A DNA stretch of 64,000 nt from an uncultured Gammaproteobacteria bacterium (GTDB taxonomy: Bacteria > Patescibacteriota > Patescibacteriia > Magasanikbacterales > GWA2-37-8), in NCBI GenBank assembly GCA_964641245.1, contig CAZXML010000001.1, positions 45,065-109,064 on the forward strand, in the 5' to 3' direction. The notes under the pieces are model-generated. The model searched no databases and was not told where the DNA came from. It worked only from the letters and a program-made list of their open reading frames with translations. The position numbers were made by a program, and so were the translations under genes. Below are positions 1 to 60,897 of this stretch, piece after piece (the first letter of the stretch is position 1; every line of letters starts with the position of its first letter).

Positions 1-80
1 TTTTATCAAGGCCAATATTTCCATGGAAAAACTGATGCAAAATGTCAGAAAAATAGCTAAGTGATAAGTATAGACTTGTT

Positions 81-467
81 ATGTCTGAAGAACCAAAAAA
101 ATCCGCTAAGACCATACTGATAGTTGAAGATGACGATGTGTTGTTGCGTACTCTGTACCTGGTTTTTCACAAAACCGGTTTTACGATTGCCACGGCCACC
201 GATGGCGACACCGCGTTAAAAATGGTTTTGCGCCTTAAACCGTCTTTGGTGCTGTTGGATTTACTTTTACCAAAAATGAACGGGTTTGATTTTTTAAAAA
301 ATATTAAGGCAGACCCGGCCTTAAAAACTATCCCCATAATTGTATTGTCCAATTTAGGCGAGGAAAATATCCAAAAAGCAAAAGATTTGGGAGCCGCGGA
401 TTATTTTATAAAATCCGACACCAGTTTGGAAAATTTAAAAGAAAAAGTTTTAAAAATTCTAGCATAA
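81..467 (+). CDS. Stand-alone response-regulator receiver (CheY-like) protein
   Basis: ILIVEDDDVLL...LLDLLLPKMNGFDFL...IIVLSN shows the receiver-domain phospho-acceptor Asp and the loop motifs. 128 aa with no output domain. Confidence 0.8.
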   Translation: MSEEPKKSAKTILIVEDDDVLLRTLYLVFHKTGFTIATATDGDTALKMVLRLKPSLVLLDLLLPKMNGFDFLKNIKADPALKTIPIIVLSNLGEENIQKAKDLGAADYFIKSDTSLENLKEKVLKILA

Positions 468-497
468 ATTTTTATGTTAAAGGGGAGGTGGCTTAAC

Positions 498-1298
498 ATG
501 ATTCTGGTTTTAACTAACAGAATCTATGTAAAAAAACAGTTAGTTTTGGGTGGGGAGGGTCTAAAGGTAGGAAAAGATGTATTATTACTGGTTTTGTACC
601 AGATCTTTTTGGCCCTGGTCTCATTACCGTTATATCTTAGCGTAAAACCGGCGGGGTTGGCTGTTTATGTTAAAGATACGGCCACCTATACCAAAATTTC
701 CGCGGATTACAGTCTGCGCCGTATTTTAACCCTCACCGGTGTCGGCGTTTTTTTAATTATCTGGGTGGTAAAACTAATATTAATAATATCTCTGCCTAGT
801 TTTTACGGACCATTGCGTCTTTATGAAGTGGTAAATTTTCGTCCGGCCGATATTTTAAACAGCGATTTAGTGGCCACGGAAACAGGTATGCAAACTGCGC
901 GTGTTCTGTCTACAATTCCAATTCCAACCTTAAAAACTGCCACCAAAGTAAGCGGCGGAGATTATATTTTTTCCGGTTCAGCCACTCCGTTATCTACGGT
1001 CGCCTTGCTTTTATCCGGCAATCAAACCGCGGTTTATTCGGCAGTGGCAGATAAAAGCGGTAAATGGGAAATCAGCCACGCGCAAAGCGGGTTCCGGCTG
1101 GCCGAGGGCAATCATTCCATAATAATTTTTGAATACGATCAAAAAAACAGCGCCCGAGGGCAAGCCGCGCCGGAACAATATTTTAAAGTTACCACCAACA
1201 TCTGGGATAAAATTACCGGCAGTGTAGATACCATCGCCAATTGGTCGGTGGTCATTATTTTAATATTAGGGGTATTCCTAACTCTTCTCACTCTTTAA
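498..1298 (+). CDS. Membrane-anchored Ig-like domain protein, a short paralog of the giant gene's termini
   Basis: SD-like AAGGGGAGGTGG lies 8 nt before the second ATG (498). The N-terminal TM region SLPLYLSVKP...RRILTLTGVGVF matches the giant protein N-terminus. The C-terminus SG.A.P...D.SG.W.ISHAQSG...G.HSI plus a final TM helix matches the giant protein C-terminus. Confidence 0.6.
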   Translation: MILVLTNRIYVKKQLVLGGEGLKVGKDVLLLVLYQIFLALVSLPLYLSVKPAGLAVYVKDTATYTKISADYSLRRILTLTGVGVFLIIWVVKLILIISLPSFYGPLRLYEVVNFRPADILNSDLVATETGMQTARVLSTIPIPTLKTATKVSGGDYIFSGSATPLSTVALLLSGNQTAVYSAVADKSGKWEISHAQSGFRLAEGNHSIIIFEYDQKNSARGQAAPEQYFKVTTNIWDKITGSVDTIANWSVVIILILGVFLTLLTL

Positions 1299-1320
1299 AC
1301 GTATAGGAGTTTTTTTTAAT

Positions 1321-1404
1321 TGTCATTCTGAGCAAAGCGAAGAATCTCTGTCCGGCTGGTCAAAACGGTACTGACAGAGATCCTTCACTGCGTTCAGGAT
1401 GACA
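1321..1404. repeat. Family-A miniature palindromic element (TGTCATTCTGAGCAAAGCGAAGAATCTCTGTC...GACAGAGATCCTTCACTGCGTTCAGGATGACA)
   Basis: Imperfect palindrome with near-identical copies at 19004, 20417, 21290, 41493 and 50664. Confidence 0.85.
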
Positions 1405-1433
1405 AATAATATAAATAATTAGCTACCATTTGT

Positions 1434-4400
1434 ATGAAAGCAAGCTGGCTAAATATATTTTTCCATTTTTCCGGAAAAATATTCAAATTAAAACAAGGCT
1501 TAATTGCTTCCACCCGCTGGTATGTGGCGGTGTATTATGCTTTATTGTTGTTTTTTGTGGAGTTGGCTTTGGCTATTATTTCTTTTCCGCTGTATTTTTT
1601 GGTTTCTCCAAAAGATATTCAAAAAGGGGGATTATATTCGTTGCCCGGTCCGCAAGCGTCTATAAACGAATATCTTTGGCGCAGAAGAATCGGCCTTACC
1701 ACCGGTGTTGGCGCCACATCCGTATTTTTGCTTAAAGTTGTTTTAGTCGGCGTGGTCTCTTTTTATTTTTTGGGAGCGCAAAAATTGCTGGCCGATTCGC
1801 AAGATTGGACTTTTGGGACGCCATCGGATTATACATATAATTCTTCCATCGTTGAAATTACCGGCGGGGTTGCGCGGTTAAAAGATCTTGGAAGTTTGGT
1901 TGCCAGTAGCACAATTAATTCCGGTTTTACCACTAATTCGGTTGGTTGGACAAACGCAGATTGGACCGATCCAGGCAATGTAACTGTGGGCCAAACTCGG
2001 CAGACATCTGGTGGAAACACCGGCGCTTATGTAGATGTTGATATCGCGATAACCGGTTCGGCTACCGCAAATAGATCCGGCGCCGGTTATTGGCAACAAA
2101 CATTTATTACCAATGTTGCTACTCCGGATACCGCCACGTTAAATTTAGATTGGAAATCAATTACTTACACTTCGCCAACTCCGCCCGCTACATATCGGCT
2201 GTATGCTTTTATTGAAACTACCAGCGGCGCCCCCACCGCAACCAATACCGCTATTTGGAATAGCGGAGAAATTACCGCCGCCACCAGCTGGGCAAGTATT
2301 TCGGCCGTGGATATTGTTAGTAAAATTCCTACGGCCGGCACTTATTATTTAAAAATTGCCGCTTATGCTACCAGCCCATTGGCAACCGGAGCGTATTCTT
2401 TTATTTCCGGCTTTGACAATGTAATTGTAAATTGGTCCAAAACAACTCACTCGTATTCCACCGCCAACCCCACCACCACGCCGGTCGCTTCGCTGTCCGC
2501 GCCAAAAATTATGAGCTGGAACGGATTCACCGAAAACGCTACACTCAACGGCGGTTCAATCAGCTACCAACTCACCGCAGACAATGGAACAAATTGGAAA
2601 TACTGGAACGGCTCTGCTTGGGCAACGTCCAGCGTCAGTAATTTCAACATTGCCAGCGTTATTAATTCCAACATCGCTACTTTCCCCACATCATCCAATC
2701 AAATTAAATGGAGGGCGTACATGACCAGTGACGGAACACAACAAGTATCGCTAAGCGGAGTTTCTATTACATACACCCAAAACGATCCGCCGCACATCAT
2801 AAGTCTGTCGCCGGCGCAAAATACCGGCAATGGCACTGTATATGTTGCTTATAGTTTACAAGACGCCAACAGCGACCCGGAATCATTGGTTGATTATGAG
2901 TATTCATTAACCGGCGCGTTTGCCGGCGAGCAAACCACCATGACCGCTTCTACTTCTGATGCGGCGCATAATGGAATCACAGGATTAAGTTCCTCGCCAA
3001 TCGGCACCGCGCATACATTTGTTTGGGATGCCCGCGCCCAGCTTGGAAACATCGTCACCACCACTGTTTATGTACGCTTACGCGCCAACGACGGTATTGC
3101 TAACGGCGCCTATACCACCAGTTCCGTATTCACAGTAGATTATGTTGCGCCAATCGTTTCCAATGTTTCCGCCGTACAAACACCGGGCACAACCACTGTC
3201 AGTATTTCCTACGATTTAACCGATTTCACAGCGTCCGGTTTAAATGTTGAATTGGGAATCTCCAACGACAGCGGCAGTACCTGGACAATCGCCACTACCT
3301 CTGCCACAGGCAATGTGGGGAGTGGTCAAACCACCGGAACAGGCAAAACCATTACCTGGAACGCGGGCGCGGATTATTCCGGACAAAGCCTTTCTACAAT
3401 GCGGGCGCGGGTAAAAGCGCGTGATAACTGGCAAAACCAGGGAACATTCACCAGTTCTTCAAATTTTTCTTTAGACACTTTGGCCCCGGCCACTCTTGCC
3501 ACCGCCAATTTGCAAGCCCAGCCAAATGCCGGAGACACCACCGTGCTTATCGGCGGAACATTCACCGAAGCCAACCCCAATACCAATGATTTTTACGTTG
3601 CCATTAACAACGGTGTATATAGTAGCGCTACGGCCGGCACAGGTAATACCGCCTCGCCGTCAAACCAAGCCACCGATGTCGGCGCCACTTTAGACGGCAA
3701 TGATTTTATTTCCAAAGTTAAAATTACTCATACCGATGATTTTGGCAACTCCGGAAATAATGAAAATACATCGCCTACCACTACCTATATATATGTAAAG
3801 CCGTACACACCGTCCGCGCCGACATTAAATAATCCGGTAACTACTCGTTTGGATTTAACGATTAACCCGCATGCAAGTGAAACCAGTGGTTTGGAATACG
3901 CCATCCAGGAAACAACCAGCGGTTTTTTTGTCCAGACCGACGGAACTTTGGCCGCCAGCGTTGTCTGGCAAATTTTAGGAACAAGCGCCGGACAGTGGGG
4001 GAATATCACCGCAGTTTCCGGCAAGGCCCGCGTTACCGGTTTATCATCTCCGGTGGCCAATTATGTTTTTAAAGTAAAATCACGCAACACCGGCGATACG
4101 GCGCACGCCACCTCATCCGAATCCGCTTACTCCGCCACCGCGCAAATTACCAACACCGCGCCTTCGGTTTCATTATCAAGTTATTCTCAAACCACAGACG
4201 GAACCCGTTATGTGCCGATAAATTATACCGGCACAGACGCGCAGGGCGATATCAACAGTTTAAATCAACGCCAATATTCCACCGATAACAGCGCCTGGAA
4301 CACCATGACCGAAAAATCCGGCGTGGGTAGTAGCGGCATAACCAACCTCACATTCCTATCTGGTGGCAGTAGTTACAATTTTGCCTGGGATTCAAATACA

Positions 4401-7400
4401 GATTTGCCGAGCGTAGAGGACACCACTGTTTATGTCCGTTTGCGGTCTACCGACACTTTGGCCAGCAGTTCTTTGGCCACCTCCAACGCTTTCGAAATAG
4501 ACAATGTCAATCCGGTTATTTCTACCACCACAGCCAGCCAAGACAGCGGAGCCAGAACCGTAACCATCACCTATAATTTAACCGACGCTAATGCCAGCAA
4601 TGTGCTTTTGGAAATTTCATCCAATAGCGGTTCTACCTGGGTTGTGGCCACATCTTCCGCTACCGGCGCAGTTGGTTCCGGAGTAACAGCCGGTGCCGGT
4701 AAAACTATTACCTGGAACGCGGGTACGGATTTCAATAGTCAATACAACACAACTATGATGGTCCGCGTTACACCGCGGGATACTTTTGGTAATCTTGGTT
4801 CCAGCGCGTCATCGGCCAATTTTACAGTAGACACAAAATCTCCAACCGTTACCAATGTTACCGCCGTTCAAGATTCCGGCGCCTCAACATTTGTTTTCCA
4901 CTACGACATTGTCGAAGACTCCGGAAATTCTCGGGTTGTGCTGGCAATTTCATCCAACAGCGGTAGTACTTGGGTTGTGCCAACGTCTTCGGTTAGCGGA
5001 GATTACGGCGCCAGCGTCACTCCCGGCACCGGCAAAACAATTACTTGGGATGGGGGAGCGGATTATAGTAGTCAGGAAAAATCTACCATGCAAATCCGTC
5101 TTACAGCCACAGATAGTTTCTCAAATAACAGCGTAAACACATCGGCGGATTTTAATTTGGATACATATGCTCCGCGTATTACCAATGTCAGCGCTTCACA
5201 AAATGCCGGCAATACCACCGTGGCTATTTCTTACGATTTAGCGGATGCAAATACCTCCACAATTTTATTGCAAATTTCTTCGGACAATGGTTCCAGCTGG
5301 ACAGTGCCAACCACCACCGCCACCGGAAATCTGGGCAGTAATATTTCCGCCGGCACCGGTAAATCAATTTCCTGGAACGCCGGAACAGATTTCTCCGCCC
5401 AGGATATTTCCAACATGAAAATACGTTTGCGCGGTACCGATACATTTAGCAATCAATCCGGCTACGTAACATCTTCCGCGTTTGCCTTAGACACAAAATC
5501 TCCGGTTGTGGCCACCACCGCCAATTTGCAAGCCCAGCCCAACGCCGGCGACACCACCGCTTTAATCGGCGGATCATTTACCGAAACCAATCCAAACACC
5601 AATAATTTTTATGTCGCGCTTGATGGCGGTTCGTATGGTTCGGCTACCGCCGGCACGGGCAACACCGCTTCTCCTTCAGACCAAAGCACAGCCACCGGCG
5701 TCACCTTAAAAGGCAATAATTATATTTCCAAAGTTAAAATTGTTCACACCGATGATTTTGGATTGGCAACTACAAACGAAAACACATCGCCAGCTACCAG
5801 TTTAAAATATGTTAAACCTTATACACCGTCGGCGCCTACCGCGGATAATCCGGCAGTTGGTGAAGTGGATGTTTTGGTAAATGCTAATCCTTCGGAAGTT
5901 ACCGGTTTGCAATACGCAATTTACGAAACTACGCAAAGTAAGTATGTTCAGGCCAACGGCACACTTGGGGTTACACCAATTTGGCAGACCATCGGCACAT
6001 CATTTGGCCAGTGGGGGAACACCACCGCGATATCCGGTAAAATCCGCGTAAACGGATTGGCGAACGCTTCTTATACATATCAATTCAAAACCAAATCACG
6101 CAACAGCTCAGACTTTTTCAACACGGCCAGCAGTGAAAGCGCATTGTCCGCCGGCGCCTCTTCCGCCAATCAAGCGCCGTCAATTTCTATCAATTCGGCT
6201 GCTCAAACCACCAACGGCACTCAATATATTACAGTAAATTATACAGGTACGGATTTGGAAAGCGAAACTGTTTCGCTGGTCAGATACCAATATTCTACAG
6301 ACAACAGCATTTGGAACACAATGACGGAAAAATCAGGTGTTGGTTCGCAGGGAACAAGCGGTTTGGCATTTAGCGCCGCCGGAGCCAGTCATAATTTTGC
6401 CTGGGATGTTGGCGCGGATTTAGCAAACACCGAAGACACAACCGTTTACGTTAGACTCCAAGCCAACGACGGCACCAGCAGTGGAAACACCGCCGTATCC
6501 AGCGCGTTTGTGGTAGACACCAAAAATCCGGCCATTAGCAGTGTCACCGCCAGCCAAAATTCCGGCGCCGGCACCGTGGCTATTTCATATACTTTAACAG
6601 ACGACAGCACCAGCACGATAGTTATGGAAATGTCGTCCAGCAGTGGTTCTACCTATAATGTTTCCGTCAGTTCTGCAACCGGCAATGTAGGCGCAGGAAT
6701 TTCATCCGGCTCCGGTAAATCTATTTCCTGGAATGCCGGCACAGACTTTTCCGGTCAGGAATTATCTACCATGAAAACACGTTTACGCGCCACGGATGCA
6801 TTTGGCAACGTGGGTTCGTTATCCGCGTCCGGTTTGTTTGACTTAGACACCAAAGTTCCGGCTGTTTCCAACGTTTCGGCTATTCAAAGCGCCGGTGGCG
6901 GGTCCGTATCAATTACCTATGATTTAAGCGACACAAATCAAAGCACTGTTGTCTTGGAAGTTTCTTCAAGCAGTGGTTCTACCTGGCTAGTGCCGGTTAG
7001 TTCGGTTACCGGAGCGGTTGGTTCCGGAGTTTCGGGCGGTACCGGAAAGACAATTACGTGGAATGCTAATGCGGATTTCTCGGGCCAAGAATTTGCCGGC
7101 ATGATTGCGCGGGTTAGGGCCACCGATATTTATAGCAATGCCGGAAGCAATGTTCAGTCCGGAGCATTTTCCTTAGACACGAAAGCCCCGGTTGTATTAA
7201 ATGTTGGCGCTTCACAAACAGCCGGCACTACTACTGTGGTAATTTCTTACGATTTATCAGATTTGGGAACAAGCACGGTAGATGTTGAAATATCTTCCAA
7301 TAACGGTTTGGGTTGGACAGTGGCCACGAGCACACTTACGGGTTCGGTTGGCTCAAATATTACGGCTGGATTCGGCAAAACAGTAGTTTGGAATGCTAAA

Positions 7401-10400
7401 GTGGATTATTCCGGCCAAGACAGCAATTCAATGCGCGTCCGCGTGCGGGGCAGAGACCGATTTAATAACATCGGCGACTTTACTCAATCCACAGATTTTA
7501 ATTTAGACACATTATCTCCGGCAACACTCACCACCGCCGATTTAATTTCCCAGCCTAATGCCGGCGATACCACGGCTTCAATCGGAGGGTCATTTACGGA
7601 AACTCACCCCAACACCAATGATTTCTATATTGCTATTAATGGCGGGGCTTATGGTTCGGCCACTGCCGGTACAGCCAACACTGCCGCTCCATCCAATCAG
7701 GCCACTGGCGTTGGTGCTACTTTAACCGGTAATGATTATATTTCCAAAGTAAAAATTGCCCACGCCGATGATTTTGGCCAGGCAACCACCAACGAAAATA
7801 CTTCTCCGGCCACCAGCCTAAAATATGTTAAGCCGTACACACCGTCCGCTCCCACAGTAAATAATCCGCAAAATACTTCCGTAACCGTTGCCGTTAACTC
7901 GCATGCCAGCGAAAGCGCTTCTGTGGAGTACGCTATTGCCGAAGTTTCCACCGGTAATTATATACAAACCAATGGCACACTCGGCGCCAGCGCGGTTTGG
8001 AAAACGCTTGGCACCGGCGCCGGGAAGTGGGGGAATGTATCCGGCGTAACCGGCACAATTAGTGTCAGCGGTCTTACTTCACCGGTAGCAAATTACAGTT
8101 TTAAAGTTAAATCGCGCAATCCTTCGGACTCTCTGCACGCCTCCGCCAGCGAAAGTAATTTTTCCACTATCGTAGGAATCAGCAACACCGCGCCCGGTAT
8201 TTCCGTTTCCAGCGTTAGTCAGCAAACCGGCAATTCTTACGCTTTAATTAATTACGTCGGCACCGATACTCAAAATGACACAAACAATCTAAACGCGTTT
8301 GAATTTTCTACGAACACCGTAAATTGGTTTACTATGACTCAAAAATCCGGCGTGGGTAGTAGTGGAGTCAGCTCATTAATATTCTCATCAACCGGCACGA
8401 ACTTTATTTTTGCTTGGGATATTGCCACAGATTTGCCCGGATATGAATCCAGCGCCGTACGCATCCGCTTAAAATCCAATGACGGTCTTACAGACAGTAA
8501 TTTAGCGCAATCTTCCGCCTTCGCCGTAGATGCCAAAGCGCCGGTAGTTTCCGGTATCAGCGCCAGTCAAGCGCCAAGCACCGGTATATTTACTTTTGAA
8601 TATACTCTGGCCGATAATTCCGCCGCCAGCAATACAATCTCACTACAAATTTCCGATGATAGCGGTTCTACCTGGACCGTGCCCACCACTTCAGCATCCG
8701 GCGATGTTGGTAGCGGTGTATCCGCCGGTTCAGCCCGTTCTATAACATGGAATCCGGCCACCAATTATCCAAACGCCGAAAGTAGTAATTTCAGAATCCG
8801 AATTCGCGGTACCGATATATATAGTAATGTCGGATCCTATGCAACGTCCTCATTATTCGCCGTAGACACCAAAGGCCCCGTAGTCAGTTCGGTTTCAGCG
8901 GTACAAAGCACCAGCACGGGTAAAGTAACTGTTTCATATTCATTCTCCGACATCACTTCCGCCGGTAACTCAACCGAATTCCAGGTTTCTTCCAACAACG
9001 GCTCAACCTGGGTTGTTGCCACCACCACCCGTAGCGGAGAAATCGGTTCCGGTCAAAGCACCGGTTCAAAAACATTTATCTGGGACGCGCCCACGGATTT
9101 TAACGGCCAGTCCAATTCGCAAATGATGGTTCGCGTCCGCGCCACTGATTATTTTGGCAACCTTGGTAGTTTTACCAATTCTTCCGCTTTCTCGCTTGAT
9201 ACCGCCGCTCCGGTTGTTTCCAGTTTAACCGGCGTGCAAATAACCAATTCCACCACCGTTCAATTTACTTATAATTTAGCAGACACCCAATCCAGCGCAT
9301 CCGTCATCGCTCAAGTTTCCTCCGACGGCGGCAGTACCTGGACTGTTCCGGTCACAACACTTGCCGGAAATATCGGTTCTGCGGTTAACACTGGCAGTGG
9401 GCTCTCTATTACTTGGCTAGTCGGTACGGATTATGGCGGACAGGAATCAAATACAATGCGGGTGAGATTGCGGGCCACGGATAGTTATGGAAACGTTAGC
9501 GCATTTTTTACATCAGCAGATTTTTCTATAAATACGCTAGCGCCGGAGTCTGTCGTTTCTGCGCCGACTGTGTCAGGTGGAGTTGCAATGCCAGTATCCG
9601 TAGTAGCGGCAGTTATTGACCTTATCCCGCCTGCCGCGCCACTTGTGTTTAGCCCAACTGCCGGTAGTGTAATCGGTGAGGCTGAGCCGACTATAATTGG
9701 CGGCTCTGAACCTGGAGCAGTTATCAACATTGTTTTGGAAGGAGAAAATAAGTTTATTGCCGAAGCGGACGCTAATGGCGCTTGGCGATTCATCTTGCCG
9801 TCGCAATTTGCTCTTCAAAACGGACAACATATCTTTACTTTAACGGCCGTTGATCAGGCCGGCAATGTTAGCGCCCCAACACAATTCACTCTTACAAAAT
9901 CTTCTTCAGCGCCGGTTAGCGCCGTTTCACCAGCTGGTGGTACTGCCGGCCTCCCCGGGCTTCTTTCAGGTGTTTTACCACCCACCCCATCCGTCGCATT
10001 AGTCCGCCAAAATATAGAAGCCACCGAAGTAGCATCCTTGCAGGTACCAAAAATTAGTACCACCACGCCCGGCGTAGTGGGCAGTGATTTTGTGTTCTCC
10101 GGCACGGCTCTGCCAAATCAGGAAGTACTGGTATATTTCCACAGTAGTCAGGCTCTTATCTACCGCACCCGTTCCGACAGCAACGGTTTCTGGCAGGTAG
10201 CCCACGCGCAAAGCACCGCCGAATTAACACCCGGTGATCATACAATCTTTGCCGTCTCCGTAGATCCGGTGAACAAAGTAAAAAGCCGGCCCAGCGCGGT
10301 TTCCAGTTTCACCATAAGAAAAAATTTCTGGGTAAGCGTATTCAACGTGTTAAATCTCCAGACCACATTAGTTACTTTAATGGTTCTTGGGTTCACCATG

Positions 10401-10445
10401 CTTTGGCTTTACCGTCTGCGAGTTAGGCAGGGTGTTGAGGTTTAG
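1434..10445 (+). CDS. Giant (3003 aa) repetitive cell-surface protein with N- and C-terminal TM anchors and Ig/FN3-like tandem domains
   Basis: 9-kb uninterrupted ORF. At least 10 copies of a ~100-aa domain (ISYDLTD...SGSTWT...TGNVGSG...GKTITWNAG.DYSGQ...RVRA.D). Three ~680-aa super-repeats start at about 3480, 5510 and 7500, each beginning LQAQPNAGDTT. C-terminal Ig-like domains are followed by a hydrophobic helix and the tail RLRVRQGVEV. Confidence 0.85.
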   Translation: MKASWLNIFFHFSGKIFKLKQGLIASTRWYVAVYYALLLFFVELALAIISFPLYFLVSPKDIQKGGLYSLPGPQASINEYLWRRRIGLTTGVGATSVFLLKVVLVGVVSFYFLGAQKLLADSQDWTFGTPSDYTYNSSIVEITGGVARLKDLGSLVASSTINSGFTTNSVGWTNADWTDPGNVTVGQTRQTSGGNTGAYVDVDIAITGSATANRSGAGYWQQTFITNVATPDTATLNLDWKSITYTSPTPPATYRLYAFIETTSGAPTATNTAIWNSGEITAATSWASISAVDIVSKIPTAGTYYLKIAAYATSPLATGAYSFISGFDNVIVNWSKTTHSYSTANPTTTPVASLSAPKIMSWNGFTENATLNGGSISYQLTADNGTNWKYWNGSAWATSSVSNFNIASVINSNIATFPTSSNQIKWRAYMTSDGTQQVSLSGVSITYTQNDPPHIISLSPAQNTGNGTVYVAYSLQDANSDPESLVDYEYSLTGAFAGEQTTMTASTSDAAHNGITGLSSSPIGTAHTFVWDARAQLGNIVTTTVYVRLRANDGIANGAYTTSSVFTVDYVAPIVSNVSAVQTPGTTTVSISYDLTDFTASGLNVELGISNDSGSTWTIATTSATGNVGSGQTTGTGKTITWNAGADYSGQSLSTMRARVKARDNWQNQGTFTSSSNFSLDTLAPATLATANLQAQPNAGDTTVLIGGTFTEANPNTNDFYVAINNGVYSSATAGTGNTASPSNQATDVGATLDGNDFISKVKITHTDDFGNSGNNENTSPTTTYIYVKPYTPSAPTLNNPVTTRLDLTINPHASETSGLEYAIQETTSGFFVQTDGTLAASVVWQILGTSAGQWGNITAVSGKARVTGLSSPVANYVFKVKSRNTGDTAHATSSESAYSATAQITNTAPSVSLSSYSQTTDGTRYVPINYTGTDAQGDINSLNQRQYSTDNSAWNTMTEKSGVGSSGITNLTFLSGGSSYNFAWDSNTDLPSVEDTTVYVRLRSTDTLASSSLATSNAFEIDNVNPVISTTTASQDSGARTVTITYNLTDANASNVLLEISSNSGSTWVVATSSATGAVGSGVTAGAGKTITWNAGTDFNSQYNTTMMVRVTPRDTFGNLGSSASSANFTVDTKSPTVTNVTAVQDSGASTFVFHYDIVEDSGNSRVVLAISSNSGSTWVVPTSSVSGDYGASVTPGTGKTITWDGGADYSSQEKSTMQIRLTATDSFSNNSVNTSADFNLDTYAPRITNVSASQNAGNTTVAISYDLADANTSTILLQISSDNGSSWTVPTTTATGNLGSNISAGTGKSISWNAGTDFSAQDISNMKIRLRGTDTFSNQSGYVTSSAFALDTKSPVVATTANLQAQPNAGDTTALIGGSFTETNPNTNNFYVALDGGSYGSATAGTGNTASPSDQSTATGVTLKGNNYISKVKIVHTDDFGLATTNENTSPATSLKYVKPYTPSAPTADNPAVGEVDVLVNANPSEVTGLQYAIYETTQSKYVQANGTLGVTPIWQTIGTSFGQWGNTTAISGKIRVNGLANASYTYQFKTKSRNSSDFFNTASSESALSAGASSANQAPSISINSAAQTTNGTQYITVNYTGTDLESETVSLVRYQYSTDNSIWNTMTEKSGVGSQGTSGLAFSAAGASHNFAWDVGADLANTEDTTVYVRLQANDGTSSGNTAVSSAFVVDTKNPAISSVTASQNSGAGTVAISYTLTDDSTSTIVMEMSSSSGSTYNVSVSSATGNVGAGISSGSGKSISWNAGTDFSGQELSTMKTRLRATDAFGNVGSLSASGLFDLDTKVPAVSNVSAIQSAGGGSVSITYDLSDTNQSTVVLEVSSSSGSTWLVPVSSVTGAVGSGVSGGTGKTITWNANADFSGQEFAGMIARVRATDIYSNAGSNVQSGAFSLDTKAPVVLNVGASQTAGTTTVVISYDLSDLGTSTVDVEISSNNGLGWTVATSTLTGSVGSNITAGFGKTVVWNAKVDYSGQDSNSMRVRVRGRDRFNNIGDFTQSTDFNLDTLSPATLTTADLISQPNAGDTTASIGGSFTETHPNTNDFYIAINGGAYGSATAGTANTAAPSNQATGVGATLTGNDYISKVKIAHADDFGQATTNENTSPATSLKYVKPYTPSAPTVNNPQNTSVTVAVNSHASESASVEYAIAEVSTGNYIQTNGTLGASAVWKTLGTGAGKWGNVSGVTGTISVSGLTSPVANYSFKVKSRNPSDSLHASASESNFSTIVGISNTAPGISVSSVSQQTGNSYALINYVGTDTQNDTNNLNAFEFSTNTVNWFTMTQKSGVGSSGVSSLIFSSTGTNFIFAWDIATDLPGYESSAVRIRLKSNDGLTDSNLAQSSAFAVDAKAPVVSGISASQAPSTGIFTFEYTLADNSAASNTISLQISDDSGSTWTVPTTSASGDVGSGVSAGSARSITWNPATNYPNAESSNFRIRIRGTDIYSNVGSYATSSLFAVDTKGPVVSSVSAVQSTSTGKVTVSYSFSDITSAGNSTEFQVSSNNGSTWVVATTTRSGEIGSGQSTGSKTFIWDAPTDFNGQSNSQMMVRVRATDYFGNLGSFTNSSAFSLDTAAPVVSSLTGVQITNSTTVQFTYNLADTQSSASVIAQVSSDGGSTWTVPVTTLAGNIGSAVNTGSGLSITWLVGTDYGGQESNTMRVRLRATDSYGNVSAFFTSADFSINTLAPESVVSAPTVSGGVAMPVSVVAAVIDLIPPAAPLVFSPTAGSVIGEAEPTIIGGSEPGAVINIVLEGENKFIAEADANGAWRFILPSQFALQNGQHIFTLTAVDQAGNVSAPTQFTLTKSSSAPVSAVSPAGGTAGLPGLLSGVLPPTPSVALVRQNIEATEVASLQVPKISTTTPGVVGSDFVFSGTALPNQEVLVYFHSSQALIYRTRSDSNGFWQVAHAQSTAELTPGDHTIFAVSVDPVNKVKSRPSAVSSFTIRKNFWVSVFNVLNLQTTLVTLMVLGFTMLWLYRLRVRQGVEV

Positions 10446-10465: not shown

Positions 10466-13342
10466 TTGTTACTCCAACAACATGCTATGGAAGAAGCCAA
10501 AAAACTTTCATCAGACACGCTTATTGACCCAAAGCTGGTTTCATTAACGAAGTTTTTTTCGGAAGCAATAAGCATTCTAGTTGTTTTGGTTGGAGCCCTG
10601 AATTTGATTGGTTGGAAATTTAATCTGGCGGTTTTAAAGAGTGTTTCCGCCGGCTTTGTTACCATGAAACCAAATACGGCTATTGGCCTGATTTTTTTGG
10701 GCGCTTCCTTGTGGTTTTTGCAGGAAAAACGATTAAAACATTGGGCGCGATATTTTGGTTATGGAAGCGCGATCGTGGCTATACTCATTGGCGCGATGGT
10801 AATTTTCCAATATTTTTTGGGTTTTAATTTGGGTATTGACAATTTATTTTTCACAGAAACCGCGCCAGCCTTGTTTACCACTTTTCCCGGCCGCATGGCT
10901 TTAAACACCGCTTTTATTCTTGTTTTTCTCGGCGTTTCTTTGTTGTCTTTTAATATAAAAACCAAGCGCGATTTGTGTTTATGTTCGCTTACGGCCATAT
11001 TGAGCGGAGCGGCGGCCTTGTTTGTTATTCTCGGTTATTTGCATGATCTCTCGGATTTTTATTTTGCCGGGGTGTTTTATACACTCATGGCTTTGCATAC
11101 AGCTATCAGTTTTTTCCTCATTAGCTTGGGGATTTTACTTGCGCGTCCGGAAAGCAGATTAATCAAAATTTTTACGCGCAATGATTCAATTGGTATCACC
11201 GTCCGCCGCATACTGCCACTGGTTTTTATTGTATCTTTGGTCGTAGGGAAGCTGGAATGGTTTGGTCTTTATTTTAATTTATATAACAGAGATTTTGGAC
11301 ATGCGCTGGTTAGCATCGTTTCAATCACGATTTTAGTGTCGTTGGTGTGGTGGAACGCAGTCAAAATGACGCAGAAAGAAGAACAGCGCGCGCAAACCCA
11401 AGAATTGTTGATAAAGTCAACAGAAGAAGTAAGAAGGCTGGGTTTCTTGATAGAACACACAGCGGAAGCGGTCGCGTTAGTTGATTTTGAGGGGGGTAAT
11501 GTCTTGCGTTATGTTAATCATGCCTGGGAGAAATTATTTGGCTTTAGCAAGCAGGAGGCGGTGAATAAAAAAGAACCTCTGATTATTGAGGCGGCCAAAC
11601 GTGATCCGACTTTAAATAAAAAACTCAAAGACTGCATTGCTTCGCATACGCCGTTTCAGGCGGAGATGGAATGGAGAAGAAAAGACGGCGCTTTAATTCC
11701 GGTAGAAGTGTTTTCTTCGTCCAGCCGAGATGTTCTTACTGGCAAATATATTTGGCTTAACACTATTCATGATATCTCCGCGCGCAAAAAAGCCGAGAAA
11801 GAAAAAATAATTATAGATCAATCGTTGCGCCGGAGCGAGGAAAGTTTGAAAAATGCTCAGCGCATATCCCATCTTGGTAATTGGGAGTGGGATATTTCAA
11901 CTAATGACGTTTTTTGGTCTGATGAAGTATATCGTATTTATGGGTATAAACCGGGCGAGATTCAACCGAATTTTGATGTTGTTTTGCGCGCCATGTCTCC
12001 CGAAAGCATTGAGGCGTTTAAACAAGGCTTGGATGATGCTATTAAAGGAAAAAAACCGTTTGAAATGGATTATGAATTATTTCGGAAAGATGGGTCAAAG
12101 GCGGTACTGCATACTATTGGCGCGGTGATTTATGACCAAAATAAAGCGCCGTTGCATATGACAGGCACTGTTCTCGATATTACCGCGCATAAAAAAGCCG
12201 AGGAAGAAATTAAAAAAGAGCAATTAAAATCAGCGGCTTTAGCCGGTGAGCTGGAAAAGTTTAAGCTGGCCGTAGACGGCGCGAACGAGCATATTATAAT
12301 TACCGATGCGGAGGGTGGTGTTATTTACGCCAATAAAGCGGTAGAAACCATTACCGGTTTTTCGCCGGCCGAAGTATTGGGGAAAAAACCCGGAAAAATC
12401 TGGGGCGGGCACATGTCGATAGAGTTTTATAAAAAAATGTGGCATAGGATTAAAATCGAAAAGAAAGGCTTTATCGGCGAGGTAAACAATTATAAGAAAA
12501 ACAGCACTCCTTATGTCGCGTCATTAAATATAACGCCGATACTGGATAAAAATGGCGCGGTAGAATTTTTTGTCGGCATAGAACGGGATATTACTAAAGA
12601 AAAAAAGGTGGAAGAAATGAAGAATGATTTTATTTCTTTTGTTTCGCACCAATTGCGTACCCCGCTTACGGTTATGCGCTGGAACGCAGAAATGTTGCTG
12701 AGCGCGGATGCCGGGAAATTAAATCGCGAACAGAAACGATATATTGCGGAAATAGACCGTGGCGAACAAAGAATGGCTCTTTTAATAAACTCTCTGCTCA
12801 ATATTTCTCGTCTGGAATCTGGGCGATTAAAAATAAATCCCAAGCCGGTTGATTTGGAGGAATTTATCGGCAATATAGTAGCGGAAGATACTCCTTATGC
12901 CACCGCTAAAAATTGTACCATCATATTTACCAAGCCTAAAAAGAAATTGCCGCCGGTAAAGATAGACGAAATGCTAACCAAGGAGGTAATTTCCAACCTG
13001 CTAAATAACGCGATCCGGTATTCACAAACCAAAAAATGTGATATAAATGTATCGTTGGAGATAAGCGGGGAATTTTATCAGATAAATATAGTCGACCATG
13101 GTATTGGCATCCCCATAGACGTGCAGAATAAGATTTTTACTAAATTTTACCGCGCCGATAACGCCGTTAAGGTGGAAACCGAGGGAACCGGTCTGGGGCT
13201 TTACATGACAAAATTAATCGTAGAAACAGGCGGTGGAAAAATATGGTTCGAATCCACCGAAGGCAAAGGCAGCGCGTTTCATTTTACCATTTCTAAGGCC
13301 GGAATGCGGGAGGTGAAAGGAGAAAAAGAACTTTCTATTTAA
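10466..13342 (+). CDS. Sensor histidine kinase with a multi-TM N-terminus, three PAS domains, HisKA and HATPase_c
   Basis: H-box FISFVSHQLRTPLTVM, N-box NLLNNAIRYS, G-boxes DHGIGIP and GTGLGLYMTK. PAS-like segments are at about aa 330-700. Confidence 0.85.
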   Translation: MLLQQHAMEEAKKLSSDTLIDPKLVSLTKFFSEAISILVVLVGALNLIGWKFNLAVLKSVSAGFVTMKPNTAIGLIFLGASLWFLQEKRLKHWARYFGYGSAIVAILIGAMVIFQYFLGFNLGIDNLFFTETAPALFTTFPGRMALNTAFILVFLGVSLLSFNIKTKRDLCLCSLTAILSGAAALFVILGYLHDLSDFYFAGVFYTLMALHTAISFFLISLGILLARPESRLIKIFTRNDSIGITVRRILPLVFIVSLVVGKLEWFGLYFNLYNRDFGHALVSIVSITILVSLVWWNAVKMTQKEEQRAQTQELLIKSTEEVRRLGFLIEHTAEAVALVDFEGGNVLRYVNHAWEKLFGFSKQEAVNKKEPLIIEAAKRDPTLNKKLKDCIASHTPFQAEMEWRRKDGALIPVEVFSSSSRDVLTGKYIWLNTIHDISARKKAEKEKIIIDQSLRRSEESLKNAQRISHLGNWEWDISTNDVFWSDEVYRIYGYKPGEIQPNFDVVLRAMSPESIEAFKQGLDDAIKGKKPFEMDYELFRKDGSKAVLHTIGAVIYDQNKAPLHMTGTVLDITAHKKAEEEIKKEQLKSAALAGELEKFKLAVDGANEHIIITDAEGGVIYANKAVETITGFSPAEVLGKKPGKIWGGHMSIEFYKKMWHRIKIEKKGFIGEVNNYKKNSTPYVASLNITPILDKNGAVEFFVGIERDITKEKKVEEMKNDFISFVSHQLRTPLTVMRWNAEMLLSADAGKLNREQKRYIAEIDRGEQRMALLINSLLNISRLESGRLKINPKPVDLEEFIGNIVAEDTPYATAKNCTIIFTKPKKKLPPVKIDEMLTKEVISNLLNNAIRYSQTKKCDINVSLEISGEFYQINIVDHGIGIPIDVQNKIFTKFYRADNAVKVETEGTGLGLYMTKLIVETGGGKIWFESTEGKGSAFHFTISKAGMREVKGEKELSI

Positions 13343-13357
13343 TTTAATTCATTCATT

Positions 13358-13741
13358 TTGAATATGCCGAGCGCCAGAAACACAATTCTTATCGTGGAGG
13401 ACGATTTGGACCTGCTGGAGGTTTTAAGAAAAAAATTTATCATGGAGAAATTTGAGGTATTACAAGCCCCGGACGGAAAAATTGGTTTGGAGGAAGCGTT
13501 GCGCAGTCATCCGGATTTAATTTTGTTGGATATTATAATGCCGATTATGGATGGGATGACTATGTTGGCCAAATTGCGCCAGGATTCCTGGGGGAAAAAT
13601 GTATCGGTAATATTGCTGACAAACCTAAGTGATGAAAGCAAAGTGGCCGAGGGGCTGAAACACGGAGTATACGACTATCTGGTTAAGGCCGATTGGAATA
13701 TTGGTGATGTGGTAAAAAAAGTTAAAGCCAGACTTAAATAA
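13358..13741 (+). CDS. Stand-alone response-regulator receiver protein
   Basis: ILIVEDDLDLLEVL...ILLDIIMPIMDGM...ILLTNL. 127 aa, receiver only. Confidence 0.8.
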   Translation: MNMPSARNTILIVEDDLDLLEVLRKKFIMEKFEVLQAPDGKIGLEEALRSHPDLILLDIIMPIMDGMTMLAKLRQDSWGKNVSVILLTNLSDESKVAEGLKHGVYDYLVKADWNIGDVVKKVKARLK

Positions 13742-16491: not shown

Positions 16492-17352
16492 ATGCAGCAA
16501 GAACATTTGAAGCGTTTAGCTAAAACTTTAGATGATATCCGGCATCAAAATGGTGTTGAGTCTTGGTATGCGCGAGAGCTGTACCCGCTATTGGGCTATG
16601 TCCGTTGGGAGAACTTTGAAACCGCTATAAACAGAGCAAAAGACTCGTGTCTGAAGACCGGCGCAAATGTTGAAGATCATTTTCGTGAGGTCACGAAAAC
16701 GATAGAAATGCCTAAGGGGGCAAGCAAAGAAGTGGTAGATATCAAACTTACCCGATACGCCTGCTATTTGGTTACACTCAACGGAGATCCCAAAAAAGAA
16801 GCCATTGCGTTTGCCCAGGCGTATTTTGTCACCCAGACCAGAACTGTTGAATTATTACAACAACGAATGGCCGAGCTGGAAAGAATTGACGCCAGAGAAA
16901 AATTAAAAATTACTGAAAAGGAGTTTAGCGATATGGCGTTTAGCAGAGGTGTTGATAGTAAGGGTATTGGAGAAATACGCTCTAAGGGCGATAAAGCTCT
17001 TTTTGGCGGAAGAACAACCGACGAAATGAAGCAAAAATTAGGGGTTCAACTCAAGAAGCCTCTGGCGGATTATTTGCCGAATGTAACACTGAAAGCAAAA
17101 GATTTAGCCACCGCGATGACTATAGAAAAAACGAGGCAGAATAATCTTTCGGGAAAAAATCAGATACGGGATGAGCACGTTAATAATAATAGAAATGTCC
17201 GCGGCGCCTTAACAAAAACCGGTATTTTCCCGGAGAGTTTGCCGGTCGCGGAAGACATAAAGAAAATTGAAGCCAGACATCGGAAAGAAACAAAAGCCTT
17301 GCAAAAAAAACAGCGCGATGAGTTAGGCAGGGCAGCGAAAAAGTTGGCTTAA
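16492..17352 (+). CDS. DinD / Bro-N-like DNA-damage-inducible protein D family protein
   Basis: The N-terminal ~120 aa carry WYARELYPLLGY..WENF and LTRYACYLV.LNGDP motifs, recalled from DinD-type proteins. The C-terminus is charged and coiled. Confidence 0.45.
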   Translation: MQQEHLKRLAKTLDDIRHQNGVESWYARELYPLLGYVRWENFETAINRAKDSCLKTGANVEDHFREVTKTIEMPKGASKEVVDIKLTRYACYLVTLNGDPKKEAIAFAQAYFVTQTRTVELLQQRMAELERIDAREKLKITEKEFSDMAFSRGVDSKGIGEIRSKGDKALFGGRTTDEMKQKLGVQLKKPLADYLPNVTLKAKDLATAMTIEKTRQNNLSGKNQIRDEHVNNNRNVRGALTKTGIFPESLPVAEDIKKIEARHRKETKALQKKQRDELGRAAKKLA

Positions 17353-23244: not shown

Positions 23245-23527
23245 GGGTGGATTCCTGAGCGGTCAAAAGGGGCAGACTGTAGTAAAATGCAGCTCTTGAG
23301 GGAAACTTCAGGATGAACTTTCTGGGATAACGGTGAAAGCTAAGGCAGGTGCTATGCCAATACCGTGGGAACCCCGATATTTGGTCGGGGGCGCCGTAGA
23401 GACTAGATACCAGAGTGCCTAAAGTCAATGTGACTAAGGCAAAGATATAGTCCACGCCAGAAGGAAACTTTTGGATTAGTGAAATCTGCTGGCTCCGCCT
23501 TCGTAGGTTCGAATCCTACTCCACCCA
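23245..23527 (+). ncRNA. ssrA: Probable tmRNA (ssrA); the tRNA-like domain is clear but the tag ORF is not resolved
   Basis: The 5' GGGTGGA pairs with the 3' TCCACCC. A perfect T-arm GTAGG-TTCGAAT-CCTAC and a discriminator A follow. About 283 nt, with no ORF. Confidence 0.5.
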
Positions 23528-23614
23528 CACGGCTTCACTGCGTTACGCCGTGTAAACCACAGCTTCTACTGTGTTACACTATGTAAACTCAGTCTTGCCT
23601 AGGTACATAAAATT

Positions 23615-37660: not shown

Positions 37661-39658
37661 TTGTCGTTTAGCTCTCTCATTTCGATTATGGAACCAAGCG
37701 AAAAAGAACCGGACATTATAGGCAACCCGGATGTCAACTATTTTGCCACCACCAATTTTCGCAATAAAAACCGGAAATTTGGCATAAAGCTGGACGATCG
37801 CCGCCGGCATTTATATGTTGTGGGCAAAACGGGTATGGGCAAAACCACCATGTTAGAAAACATGGTTCTTAATGATATCTACGCGGGGCACGGCGTGGGA
37901 GTGGTAGATCCGCACGGCGATTTTGCCGAAAAAATTATAGATTATATTCCGGCTAATCGCATTAACGACGTGGTTTATTTTAATCCGTCCGATATTGATT
38001 TTCCAATCGGTTTTAATATTTTAGAAAGCATAGATCCGCGCTACCGCCATTTGGTGGCATCCGGACTTATGGGCGTTTTCAAAAAAATCTGGCCGGATGT
38101 GTGGAGCGCGCGCATGGAATACATTTTAAACAACACTCTTTTGGCCTTGCTGGAATTTCCCAACACCACCCTGCTAGGCATCAACCGACTGCTGGCCGAC
38201 AACGCTTACCGCAAACGCGTCATTAAAAATTTAAAAGATCCTGTTATCCGTTCATTCTGGGAAACGGAATTTGCCGGTTATAACGACCGCTATAAACAGG
38301 AAGCGGTCGCTCCGGTACAAAATAAAATCGGTCAATTTTTGTCGGCTTCGGTTATCCGCAACATTGTGGCGCAGACAAAATCGCGCATCAACATCCGCGA
38401 AATCATGGACACCAAGAAAATTTTTATCATGAACTTATCCAAAGGCAGAATCGGCGAAGATAATTCCCGGTTGCTGGGTGGTATGCTTATCACCAAAATT
38501 CAATTGGCGGCCATGGAAAGAGTAGACACTCCGGAAAAAGACCGCAAAGATTTTTTTCTTTATGTAGATGAATTTCAAAATTTTGCCACGGAAAGTTTTT
38601 CCAACATTTTATCCGAAGCGCGCAAATACCGGTTAGACTTAACCATGGCGCACCAATATATGGAGCAGTTGGATGAAACCGTGCTGGCCGCGGTAATTGG
38701 TAACGTGGGTACGCTGGTAACATTCCGGGTGGGTTCTACGGATGCGGAAATTCTGGCCAAAGAATTCGCGCCTACTTTTATAGAAACCGATTTGGTTAAT
38801 TTAACAAAATTTCAAATTTATTTAAAATTAATGATAGACGGCGTTGCTTCACAGCCTTTTTCCGCCAACACTTTATCGCCGATAAATATTTCCACCCATA
38901 GCACAGAAAAAGTTATTAAAGTTTCCCGCGAACGCTACGCCACCAGCCGGGAAAATATAGAAGACAAAATTATGCGTTGGACCGGTATGGAAGCCGGCGG
39001 AACGGGGGATACCGATGTAGACGAGGACGATGAAAATTACGGCGAGGATGAAGAGGGTATGCCGGTTTTGTTAGATAAGATGGTTGCTCCACCAATGGTG
39101 CCGGTTGCTCCAAAAGCTCCGACTCCGTCTGCTGTAAAAAAACTCCCGATTCTGACTCCGAGTCAGAATCGAGGATCCTCGATTTTGCCCGAACGCAAAA
39201 TCGGGACAACCCCTCCGCCGGTCAAAAAATCAGAACCCGCTCCGGTTAAATCAGACATAAAAGACAGTCAGCCGATTTCATTGGTGGATACAAGTCAAAA
39301 GGGGATAAGTTTGTCGCAAGCAGTACAAACTAACAAACAACCTGTTAAAGTAGAGAAAAAACACGAACATAAACCGGTGCAGGTGAGTCAGACGGTTCCT
39401 AAACAAGCGACAAATGCCAACCCACCCCTACCCAGACGCCTCCCGACCGCGGTCGAGGATCCTCGATTCTCGAGAATCGGGACAAGCGGGGAATTGCCAA
39501 AACCGCCAGCGCCACCGGCGACACCGGCGTCGGTAATTCCGCCTAAACCTTTACCAATAAATCAAACAGAGAAAAAGATTTTCCCGGATAAAATTGTCCA
39601 CATAGACGATGACACGGATAATGGCCTGCCTGCCGGCAGGCAGGTTGACAAAAATTAA
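37661..39658 (+). CDS. TraD/VirD4/HerA-like P-loop NTPase with a Pro-rich low-complexity C-terminus that contains repeat-element insertions
   Basis: Walker A VVGKTGMGKTT, Walker B FFLYVDEFQNF, and an AHQYMEQL motif. The C-terminal 250 aa are P/K-rich with embedded CGAGGATCCTCG and CCTGCCTGCCGGCAGGCAGG hairpins. Confidence 0.5.
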   Translation: MSFSSLISIMEPSEKEPDIIGNPDVNYFATTNFRNKNRKFGIKLDDRRRHLYVVGKTGMGKTTMLENMVLNDIYAGHGVGVVDPHGDFAEKIIDYIPANRINDVVYFNPSDIDFPIGFNILESIDPRYRHLVASGLMGVFKKIWPDVWSARMEYILNNTLLALLEFPNTTLLGINRLLADNAYRKRVIKNLKDPVIRSFWETEFAGYNDRYKQEAVAPVQNKIGQFLSASVIRNIVAQTKSRINIREIMDTKKIFIMNLSKGRIGEDNSRLLGGMLITKIQLAAMERVDTPEKDRKDFFLYVDEFQNFATESFSNILSEARKYRLDLTMAHQYMEQLDETVLAAVIGNVGTLVTFRVGSTDAEILAKEFAPTFIETDLVNLTKFQIYLKLMIDGVASQPFSANTLSPINISTHSTEKVIKVSRERYATSRENIEDKIMRWTGMEAGGTGDTDVDEDDENYGEDEEGMPVLLDKMVAPPMVPVAPKAPTPSAVKKLPILTPSQNRGSSILPERKIGTTPPPVKKSEPAPVKSDIKDSQPISLVDTSQKGISLSQAVQTNKQPVKVEKKHEHKPVQVSQTVPKQATNANPPLPRRLPTAVEDPRFSRIGTSGELPKPPAPPATPASVIPPKPLPINQTEKKIFPDKIVHIDDDTDNGLPAGRQVDKN

Positions 39659-44953: not shown

Positions 44954-45105
44954 TAGTCGGCAAGGGAGTGGACAACTTACTATATATACATATCAATCAT
45001 TGCGGTGTAGCTGGATCGTAGTTATACAACGTCTAAATGTCCGTATAACTTAACCATCTGGTGCTGATATCGCGGCAGTGATTGGTATTTTTTAAAACTA
45101 AAATT

Positions 45106-55013: not shown

Positions 55014-55183
55014 AACAAAAAAGCCCCTTGCGGGGAGGTAGCCTTATAGATTTGTGATGCCTAGATTATAGCCAACCGATGGATGGGAACATCTAGAACA
55101 ATCTACAAAGGACTTATACCTGACTCTAGAATACAGCTTTTTAACCTAAATGTCAATAGTTATCCACAGGTCATTTTATGCCT

Positions 55184-60499: not shown

Positions 60500-60843
60500 T
60501 CAAGAATTTTAGGGTTAAATGTGGCGCTGTGTTCCAAGACATTGGCAATGGCGCGGATAGTGTCTTGAGCTGTGAGGGAGGTTTCGCTCAAAGAAACGAT
60601 ATAGGTGCCGCGCGACGGCGATGAAAAAACACCAGTATTTACCAGTGCGCTATGCACATCAGCGTAAGATACAAACGGGCTCATTTCCGAATTAATCCAC
60701 ATAACAGGTTTGGCAGTCCAGAATTCGGCGTCTTGGCCCAGGCAGGTTGATGTCACCAGCATCACTAACCCACTACCAGTCGATATGTTTTGTAAGTTGG
60801 AATTATAAGCTAAACCCGATGTCAGATAAATATCTTCTTTCAT
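60496..60843 (-). CDS. Hypothetical protein encoded antisense between mod and res
   Basis: 115-aa ORF in a locally GC-richer segment, convergent with mod and divergent from res. Confidence 0.35.
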   Translation of the reverse strand: MKEDIYLTSGLAYNSNLQNISTGSGLVMLVTSTCLGQDAEFWTAKPVMWINSEMSPFVSYADVHSALVNTGVFSSPSRGTYIVSLSETSLTAQDTIRAIANVLEHSATFNPKILD

Positions 60844-60897
60844 AAAAATAAATTAAGAATAAGGCGTTATTGTAACATTCATTTTAAATACAAGCAA

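Follow-up and report, generated by a model that had tools for sequence, protein, structure and literature searches.

What is a membrane protein for, when it carries both ends of a giant neighbour and none of that neighbour's body? The question is raised by the first part of the 64,000-nucleotide stretch analysed here (hereafter the window; positions 45,065 to 109,064, forward strand, of contig CAZXML010000001.1, assembly GCA_964641245.1), where the gene for such a protein, called mini in this work, lies just upstream of the gene for a protein of 3003 residues, called the giant. An earlier note on this DNA had described mini as the N- and C-terminal anchor domains of the giant fused without its repeat body, and had considered that it might be an ancestral cassette, a scaffold or chaperone for the giant, or a phase-variable alternative. 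The comparisons reported here show that mini is an ancient paralog of the adjoining giant, and make it about an even chance that it serves the giant as an obligate membrane partner. The two genes are divided as follows (aa, amino acids; nt, nucleotides; Ig, immunoglobulin; TM, transmembrane).

474..1298, + strand: mini paralog, a 274-aa membrane protein with both anchor ends of the giant and without the repeat body
474-803, + strand: mini N-module (aa 1-110)
482..500, + strand: Shine-Dalgarno-like GGGGAGGTG and internal ATG 498, probably not the main start of mini
804-902, + strand: mini linker and short helix (aa 111-143)
903-1298 including the stop codon, + strand: mini C-module, an Ig-like domain and a TM helix (aa 144-274)
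1434..10445, + strand: giant open reading frame (ORF), 3003 aa
1434..1838, + strand: giant N-module (aa 1-135), homologous to mini aa 2-108
1797..2774, + strand: two-domain jelly-roll/beta-sandwich ectodomain of the giant (aa 122-447), following TM2
2799..9545, + strand: giant repeat body (aa ~456-2704), delimited by self-BLAST and DNA repeat families D1-D11
10020..10445, + strand: giant C-module of Ig-like domain, TM helix and basic tail (aa 2863-3003), homologous to mini aa 142-270

Alignment of the two proteins by BLASTP gave matches at both ends, between mini residues 2-59 and giant residues 1-59 (32% identity, E 2e-5) and between mini residues 142-244 and giant residues 2863-2966 (104 residues, 30% identity, E 1e-13). 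Profile comparison with hhalign, using 34 minis, 33 giant N-termini and 22 giant C-termini, all from other genomes, paired mini residues 2-108 with giant residues 1-111 (probability 98.9%, E 2e-17) and mini residues 144-250 with the last Ig-like domain of the giant (probability 99.3%, E 2e-20). In hydropathy plots, mini and the giant alike have a pair of hydrophobic helices near the N-terminus and a TM helix at the C-terminus. Pairwise alignment, hhalign and hydropathy thus agree on the shared N-terminal two-TM region claimed in the earlier note, and BLASTP and hhalign on the shared C-terminal Ig-like domain with its terminal TM helix; all of the motif pairs quoted in that note were found in the two translations. 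A hidden Markov model (HMM) of the mini family, run against all open frames of the window, matched mini and the giant (E 4e-29) and detected no third paralog in the 64 kb, the next best match having an E-value of 1.9.

Significant similarity at both ends is more than shared hydrophobic composition would give, and the likeness is homology. Residues common to both paralog families include W-L-N, E43, S50, P52, Y54, R82, R83 and K100, the last of these inside TM2, while each family also has invariant motifs of its own: T14-N15-R16 and D78-Y79 in the minis, S13-G14 and VSPKKxQE in the giants. Conservation of the TM helices and of the predicted cytoplasmic loop extends to individual residues (entropy ~1.1-1.4 bits) and exceeds the needs of a plain hydrophobic anchor.

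As judged from sequence, mini is the N-terminal membrane module of the giant joined to its C-terminal Ig and TM module, with the body absent. Between the two modules the giant has an extracellular stretch of ~2750 aa made up of jelly-roll, Ig-like and FN3-like repeats and mini has a ~35-aa linker, the body being located where the linker of mini is disordered. A mini-type metagenome protein of 378 aa (P0183) has an insertion of ~130 aa between its N- and C-modules, and reads as an intermediate architecture in which the linker tolerates insertions. For the purposes of this work we define an anchor-cassette family by a W-L-N helix, a Glu in helix 1, S-L-P-L-Y, an Arg-Arg pair and a Lys in TM2, together with the Ig domain and the terminal TM helix. 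At this locus both modules are present in one polypeptide and mini adjoins the giant.

Start codon, fold and history of mini

The public gene call for mini (P0001) is 266 aa long and begins at ATG 498, the start also given in the earlier note, with the Shine-Dalgarno-like string at 482-490 upstream of it. The eight residues encoded before ATG 498, MLKGRWLN, are part of M-K-x-K-W-L-N, the motif that the family conserves best. W6 and L7 never vary among 40 mini homologs of only 44-79% identity, in which N8 has a conservation of at least 90%, and BLASTP aligns the motif with the giant N-terminus, MKASWLN. Because residues 1-8 are conserved in the family and align with the start of the giant, we replace the earlier assignment by ATG 474, which on this evidence is the true start of mini and gives a protein of 274 aa. 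With a start at 474, GGGGAGGTG becomes coding sequence for K-G-R-W; other genomes have KNKW at this position, without the Shine-Dalgarno-like string.

A model of mini was built with AlphaFold2 (AF2) from 40 homologs and has a predicted local distance difference test score (pLDDT) of 72.6. It consists of a helix at residues 2-26, a helix at 31-56 with a break at residue 50 in the invariant S50-L-P52-L-Y54, a beta-hairpin at 62-77, a helix at 80-111, a disordered linker at 116-130 (pLDDT <50), a short helix at 130-141, a seven-strand Ig-like sandwich at 152-239 (block-mean pLDDT 75-89) and a final helix at 243-273. The N-module is thus made up of an amphipathic, basic N-terminal helix that bears M-K-x-K-W-L-N, a hydrophobic helix with a conserved Glu and the invariant S-L-P-L-Y kink, a basic beta-hairpin loop that ends in Arg-Arg, and a second TM helix with an invariant Lys. 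No relatives of this module were found in Pfam, NCBIfam or PDB profile searches.

The C-module contains a single Ig-like domain, probably of the Big_13/Ca-tandemer type, followed by the terminal TM helix. The AF2 model and Foldseek both assign it an Ig-like beta-sandwich fold, with Foldseek matches to SiiE, Bap and MpIBP BIg domains (RII in MpIBP) at E 3e-5 to 1e-3 (probability 1.00), and a PDB profile search also matches it to Ig domains of the SiiE/Bap/MpIBP type. By family models mini scores 18.4 bits against Big_13 (PF19077; cut-off 27) and 21.9 bits against Ca_tandemer (NF033510; cut-off 50), below threshold in both cases, while the C-terminal 281 aa of the giant pass the latter (57.7 bits) and some orthologous minis and giants have precomputed PF19077 matches. 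Across lineages the mini family has 34 invariant positions and a fixed length of 273-275 aa.

All minis fall apart from all giants in neighbour-joining trees, in that of the N-modules as well as in that of the C-modules. Mini-giant identity is 23.9% and 22.6% within the same genome and 24.2% and 22.1% across genomes. The separate clades and the equal identities point to one duplication that preceded the divergence of the lineages, with no gene conversion since, and the two copies appear to have been under independent purifying selection after it. No direct or inverted DNA repeats are common to 474-1298 and the ends of the giant gene, nor were flanking inverted repeats found, and the conserved gene block contains no recombinase gene. 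The tree separation and the absence of shared DNA repeats rule out a recent deletion derivative of the giant.

Co-occurrence of mini and giant, and the flanking genes

The conservation of the pair was assessed in 36 species-level genomes and further metagenome contigs, which together supplied about 50 loci. The check in related genomes that the earlier note had proposed found the mini-giant pair, with both genes intact and co-directional in every locus, in Magasanikbacteria, Uhrbacteria, Buchananbacteria, Falkowbacteria and Paceibacteria (about five candidate phyla or orders). Mini measures 273-275 aa and the giant anything from 909 to >4674 aa. The spacer between the genes has a median of 4 nt, with two 4-nt overlaps. 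The metagenome-assembled genomes (MAGs) of L009, L017, L022, L023, L032 and L034 bear the title 'uncultured Gammaproteobacteria bacterium' and carry this Patescibacteria-specific cassette; the titles of these third-party-assembled MAGs are probably wrong.

A word-index search gave 180 matches to the mini family, nearly all of 273 aa, and a mini profile search of a representative library gave 686 matches at E<=1e-3. The best 150 of these 686 comprised about 70 proteins of mini size, 23-25 giants (909-5686 aa) that open with the N-module at residue 1 and close with the C-module at their very end, and 53 unrelated proteins that have only tandem Ig repeats in common. No complete protein with only one of the two modules was present among these best 150, the exceptions being incomplete or mis-started gene calls; the two modules occur together in complete proteins, in keeping with the cassette envisaged before. 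The reverse test, a metagenome scan with an alignment of eight closer giant N-module sequences as query, found mini directly upstream in 13/13 loci. A profile homolog search with the giant N-module returned five short fragments only and is uninformative on the co-occurrence of the modules. Downstream of both divergent minis examined (~85-155 bits) comes a protein that begins with the N-module; at one of them (L044), which is without upstream regulators, the downstream protein is complete at 918 aa and has the C-module too.

The pair is flanked by two-component genes, which in the window are the following.

2..64, + strand: 3' end of a first CheY-like response regulator, cut by the window edge (frame-2 translation FIKANISMEKLMQNVRKIAK, then the stop)
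81..467, + strand: second single-domain response regulator, 128 aa (Pfam Response_reg, E 4.7e-22)
10466..13342, + strand: histidine kinase, 958 aa (Pfam PAS, HisKA, HATPase_c)
13358..13741, + strand: third single-domain response regulator, 127 aa (Pfam Response_reg, E 1.5e-22)

By domain content these genes form a two-component system, with HisKA (E 2.5e-17), HATPase_c (E 4.9e-25) and three PAS domains in the kinase and receiver domains in the regulators. The second regulator stops 6 nt before mini and has no output domain by Pfam. All three regulators are receiver-only, and since they have no DNA-binding output domain, regulation through them is probably post-translational. The N-terminal domain of the kinase (aa 30-300) has ~7-8 TM helices by hydropathy and little extracellular sequence, and no Pfam or NCBIfam family matches this membrane domain. 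The start of the kinase is uncertain, the listed codon being a TTG and an ATG eight codons further in being possible.

The order response regulator, response regulator, mini, giant is kept in nearly every locus with enough flanking sequence. Two receiver-only genes stand upstream of mini in the orthologous loci, and the ortholog of the second regulator lies directly upstream of mini in nearly all loci with enough sequence (phmmer E 1e-41 to 1e-56). The PAS kinase and the third regulator are usually found directly downstream of the giant: the kinase ortholog follows it in L005, L019, L021, L023, L025, L026, L032 and L037, and at a distance of 1 kb in L009, and the third-regulator ortholog comes after the kinase in L005, L021, L023, L025, L026 and L037.

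In this window the gap between mini and giant is 135 nt, owing to the insertion of a palindromic element.

1320..1404, + strand: 85-nt palindromic element resembling a repetitive extragenic palindrome (REP), between mini and giant, lineage-specific

The element, TGTCATTCTGAGCAAAGCGAAGAATC ... GTTCAGGATGACA, has a predicted RNA fold of -51 kcal/mol (z -6.8). Six + strand copies are present in the window, at 1321, 15857, 19004, 20417, 21290 and 50664, and every copy lies just past the end of a + strand gene, with 0 expected by chance. The element is probably a terminator or mRNA stabiliser of the REP type or of the type of a miniature inverted-repeat transposable element.

Candidate role of mini in the membrane

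The charge distribution gives a predicted topology for both proteins. The 58-83 loop has a Lys plus Arg count of 5.4 in minis and 7.2 in giants, and the C-terminal tail of the giant one of 3.8; because they are basic, loop and tail are predicted to be cytoplasmic. Mini has no basic C-terminal tail. The segment after TM2 is acidic, which places the body outside. The N-terminal helix is basic and amphipathic, with a mean hydrophobicity of ~0.1 and a hydrophobic moment of 0.3-0.47. A fourth TM helix was considered at this position, but the low hydrophobicity and the moment mark an amphipathic helix; the first hydrophobic helix may instead be re-entrant at the Ser-x-Pro break, or the topology may be unusual.

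Our preferred reading, to which we give a probability of about 0.5, is that mini would act for the giant as a base subunit or obligate membrane partner and would be coupled to the two-component system around the pair. Mini would be co-translated from the same operon as the giant and would assemble with it through the homologous TM and Ig modules. The N- and C-modules would pack as one membrane unit, so that the giant might form a closed loop or a fibre held at both ends. The cytoplasmic faces, made up of the N-terminal helix and the basic hairpin, would couple the complex to the flanking kinase and regulators; through this coupling the adhesin could be controlled, or its engagement of a host or surface signalled. 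A partnership with the giant is plausible because of the strict two-way co-occurrence and tight coupling of the two genes. Nothing in the data points to a chaperone in the strict sense.

Several points weigh against this interpretation. In L038, a Paceibacteria MAG, 6.4 kb (776-7167) separate mini from the giant, with small ORFs without Pfam match in the insert; this is the only locus seen without close adjacency, but together with spacers of 117-227 nt in four loci it means that the tight coupling is not absolute. The position of the kinase varies, the gene being upstream in L029, L039 and L040 and, in L044, on the other strand. By the positive-inside rule, N-terminus, 58-83 loop and giant tail would all be cytoplasmic, a placement that would need either a re-entrant first hydrophobic helix (helix-break-helix at S50-x-P52) or an amphipathic helix that crosses the membrane. 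A mirror-tree comparison of the mini and giant N-modules gave r 0.71 and a partial correlation of 0.49 given the second response regulator (permutation p 5e-4); it is weak, since the control regulator belongs to the same cassette and phylogeny is not fully removed. Conserved synteny and co-expression, finally, also fit independent functions in one pathway. Were mini only a co-expressed paralog with a separate role, the family definition and the start-codon correction would remain useful.

Other explanations must be weighed against a partner subunit. Mini could be a signalling co-sensor or adaptor, comparable to the accessory membrane proteins of intramembrane-sensing kinases, that has its ancestry in common with the giant but works mainly with the kinase and the CheY-like regulators, the giant being the regulated output. 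The regulators and the kinase do belong to the conserved block, conservation in mini is highest in the N-terminal helix, in the TM helices and in the predicted cytoplasmic loop, the kinase has little extracellular sequence beside its 7-8 TM domain, and regulators without output domains must act by protein-protein contact. However, these TM and cytoplasmic motifs are retained in the giant as well, so that their binding partner would be shared and not specific to mini, and the position and architecture of the kinase vary where the adjacency of mini and giant does not; we regard this role as possible but rather unlikely. That mini is instead a body-less competitor or spacer, which takes up membrane sites or assembly partners of the giant and so, as a placeholder or dominant-negative regulator, sets the density or spacing of the giant on the surface, we consider improbable. 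Such a competitor would be expected to have the same anchor modules and no body, as mini has, it is encoded first in the operon, and here the hairpin element that separates the genes could reduce expression of the giant compared with that of mini; yet the ~23% identity and the paralog-specific invariant motifs speak for distinct, complementary roles, and the hairpin element is lineage-specific.

The phase-variable or recombinational alternative, in which mini would exchange with the ends of the giant gene, has the shared end architecture in its favour and nothing further. There are no shared DNA repeats, no conversion signal at ~23% identity and no recombinase gene in the block, and two genes that are intact and co-directional in ~50 loci do not suggest a switch; this part of the earlier proposal is in effect refuted. 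The chance is smaller still, and practically negligible, that mini is a decaying remnant of a duplicated giant or resembles it by chance hydrophobic similarity. Its short length would suit a remnant, but E-values of 1e-13 to 2e-20, a fixed length, 34 invariant positions, 686 profile matches and a confidently folded Ig domain would not.

The partner-subunit reading can be carried further, to a six-gene block that encodes a surface organelle with which ultrasmall episymbiotic bacteria would sense contact or tension, a mechanosensory adhesin, although we hold this extension to be speculative and unlikely. Binding to, or pulling on, the jelly-roll/Ig body would shift TM2 of the giant relative to its TM3, with the body-less mini as a fixed reference or co-receptor, and the PAS kinase and the three CheY-like regulators would respond to the change that this brings about in the hairpin and the N-terminal helix. 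If true, this would be a mechanosensory adhesin system without described counterpart.

The giant body, related systems and other features of the window

The ~330-aa jelly-roll module of the giant is modelled by AF2 with a pLDDT of 92, and its matches to solved structures (CBM22, MAM, Epf adhesin) are weak and non-specific. P0286, a protein that carries the N_methyl type IV pilin motif, has two copies of a module to which it is 43% identical (E 2e-66). The jelly-roll module also occurs in Patescibacteria proteins of 600-820 aa (P0279-P0298), at times duplicated and in some cases with the pilin N-methylation motif. From these sequences, pili and the giant seem to be alternative places of display for one and the same adhesive module. 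Unlike P0286, the giant has no pilin methylation motif and its module follows the anchor TM2, not a pilin helix; mini has no such module. The repeat body beyond it consists of ~110-aa Ig-like and FN3-like units arranged in three super-repeats of 672 aa (2016 nt), and the DNA repeat families D1-D11 are spaced at 2016 and 330 nt. The super-repeats (3460-9545) are only ~71-72% identical in DNA and are old, not recently expanded. A further Ig domain lies between them and the C-module. The occurrence of the jelly-roll module in pilin-like proteins, together with Ig domains like those of SiiE, Bap and MpIBP, independently supports an extracellular, adhesin-like body.

The motifs of known anchoring and secretion systems are absent. 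No LPxT[GASN] occurs anywhere in the mini or the giant of the window, and within the last 70 aa it is present in 0/34 minis and 1/22 giants. Neither protein has a GGxGxD motif or a Pfam RTX match, no type I secretion system genes are found in the conserved gene block, and Pfam detects no N_methyl pilin motif (PF07963) in mini or giant. Sortase or RTX anchoring was rejected on the absence of these motifs.

In its very long series of tandem ~100-aa Ig-like domains the giant resembles SiiE, LapA, MpIBP, Bap and Ebh of Staphylococcus aureus, and its body belongs to the familiar giant Ig-repeat adhesins. Ebh itself has a C-terminal membrane-spanning anchor with a basic tail. The giant differs from adhesins of the RTX and Ebh types in having neither RTX GGxGxD repeats nor LPxTG, in being anchored at both ends by a module without a relative in Pfam, NCBIfam or PDB, and in its pairing, in a monoderm host of the candidate phyla radiation (CPR), with a body-less paralog and a dedicated two-component system. 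Large surface proteins encoded in tandem with a smaller membrane partner that holds or places them include SlaA/SlaB of Sulfolobus and Gli349/Gli521/Gli123 of Mycoplasma mobile, but the analogy is one of operon pairing only, since paralogy with both termini in common is not a feature of the partners there. BceS/BceAB and LiaS/LiaF are examples of intramembrane-sensing kinases that have accessory membrane proteins, and the sensor domain of the kinase described here is likewise mostly membrane-embedded. A survey of S-layers notes that co-expressed accessory proteins can provide the anchoring (doi 10.1101/2024.05.28.596244). In S. aureus ArlRS-MgrA controls the giant surface proteins Ebh, SraP and SasG (PMC6548404), and here too a giant surface protein is tied to a histidine kinase/response regulator pathway. 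In contrast to ArlRS-MgrA, the signalling genes described here flank the adhesin pair in one block and their regulators are receiver-only.

A full-text literature search found no description of the mini-giant pair or of the cassette. Neither Pfam, NCBIfam and PDB nor the searchable literature describes the anchor module, the body-less paralog that obligatorily goes with the giant, or the receiver-only regulators beside them. The Patescibacteria (CPR) are believed to live on other cells, to which they attach, and few of their surface machines have been characterised. The six-gene block, with a giant of variable length, a body-less paralog of fixed length, a kinase and receiver-only regulators, is a concrete candidate for attachment to, or sensing of, a host or surface. 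The giant has the appearance of a small membrane protein whose linker has taken up a repeat body, and is a clean natural example of such an insertion. It is also hard to handle, and the small, conserved mini offers a tractable entry point.

Elsewhere in the window, a tRNA-Tyr(GTA) gene at 23245-23528 (+) has its anticodon loop split by a 201-nt group I intron; Rfam matches Intron_gpI at 23270-23474 (50.5 bits), and ARAGORN finds the tRNA-Tyr in intron mode only. Rfam also matches the DUF3800-V RNA at 55031-55128 (-), with 53.6 bits against a gathering score of 37.4. A Bro-N domain protein (16492-17352), a TrwB/VirD4-like coupling ATPase (37661-39658) and a DNA methylase beside a ResIII helicase-type restriction subunit (58922-63183) may represent mobile-element or restriction-modification content. 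The GC fraction of the window drops to 0.35-0.38 past ~58 kb.

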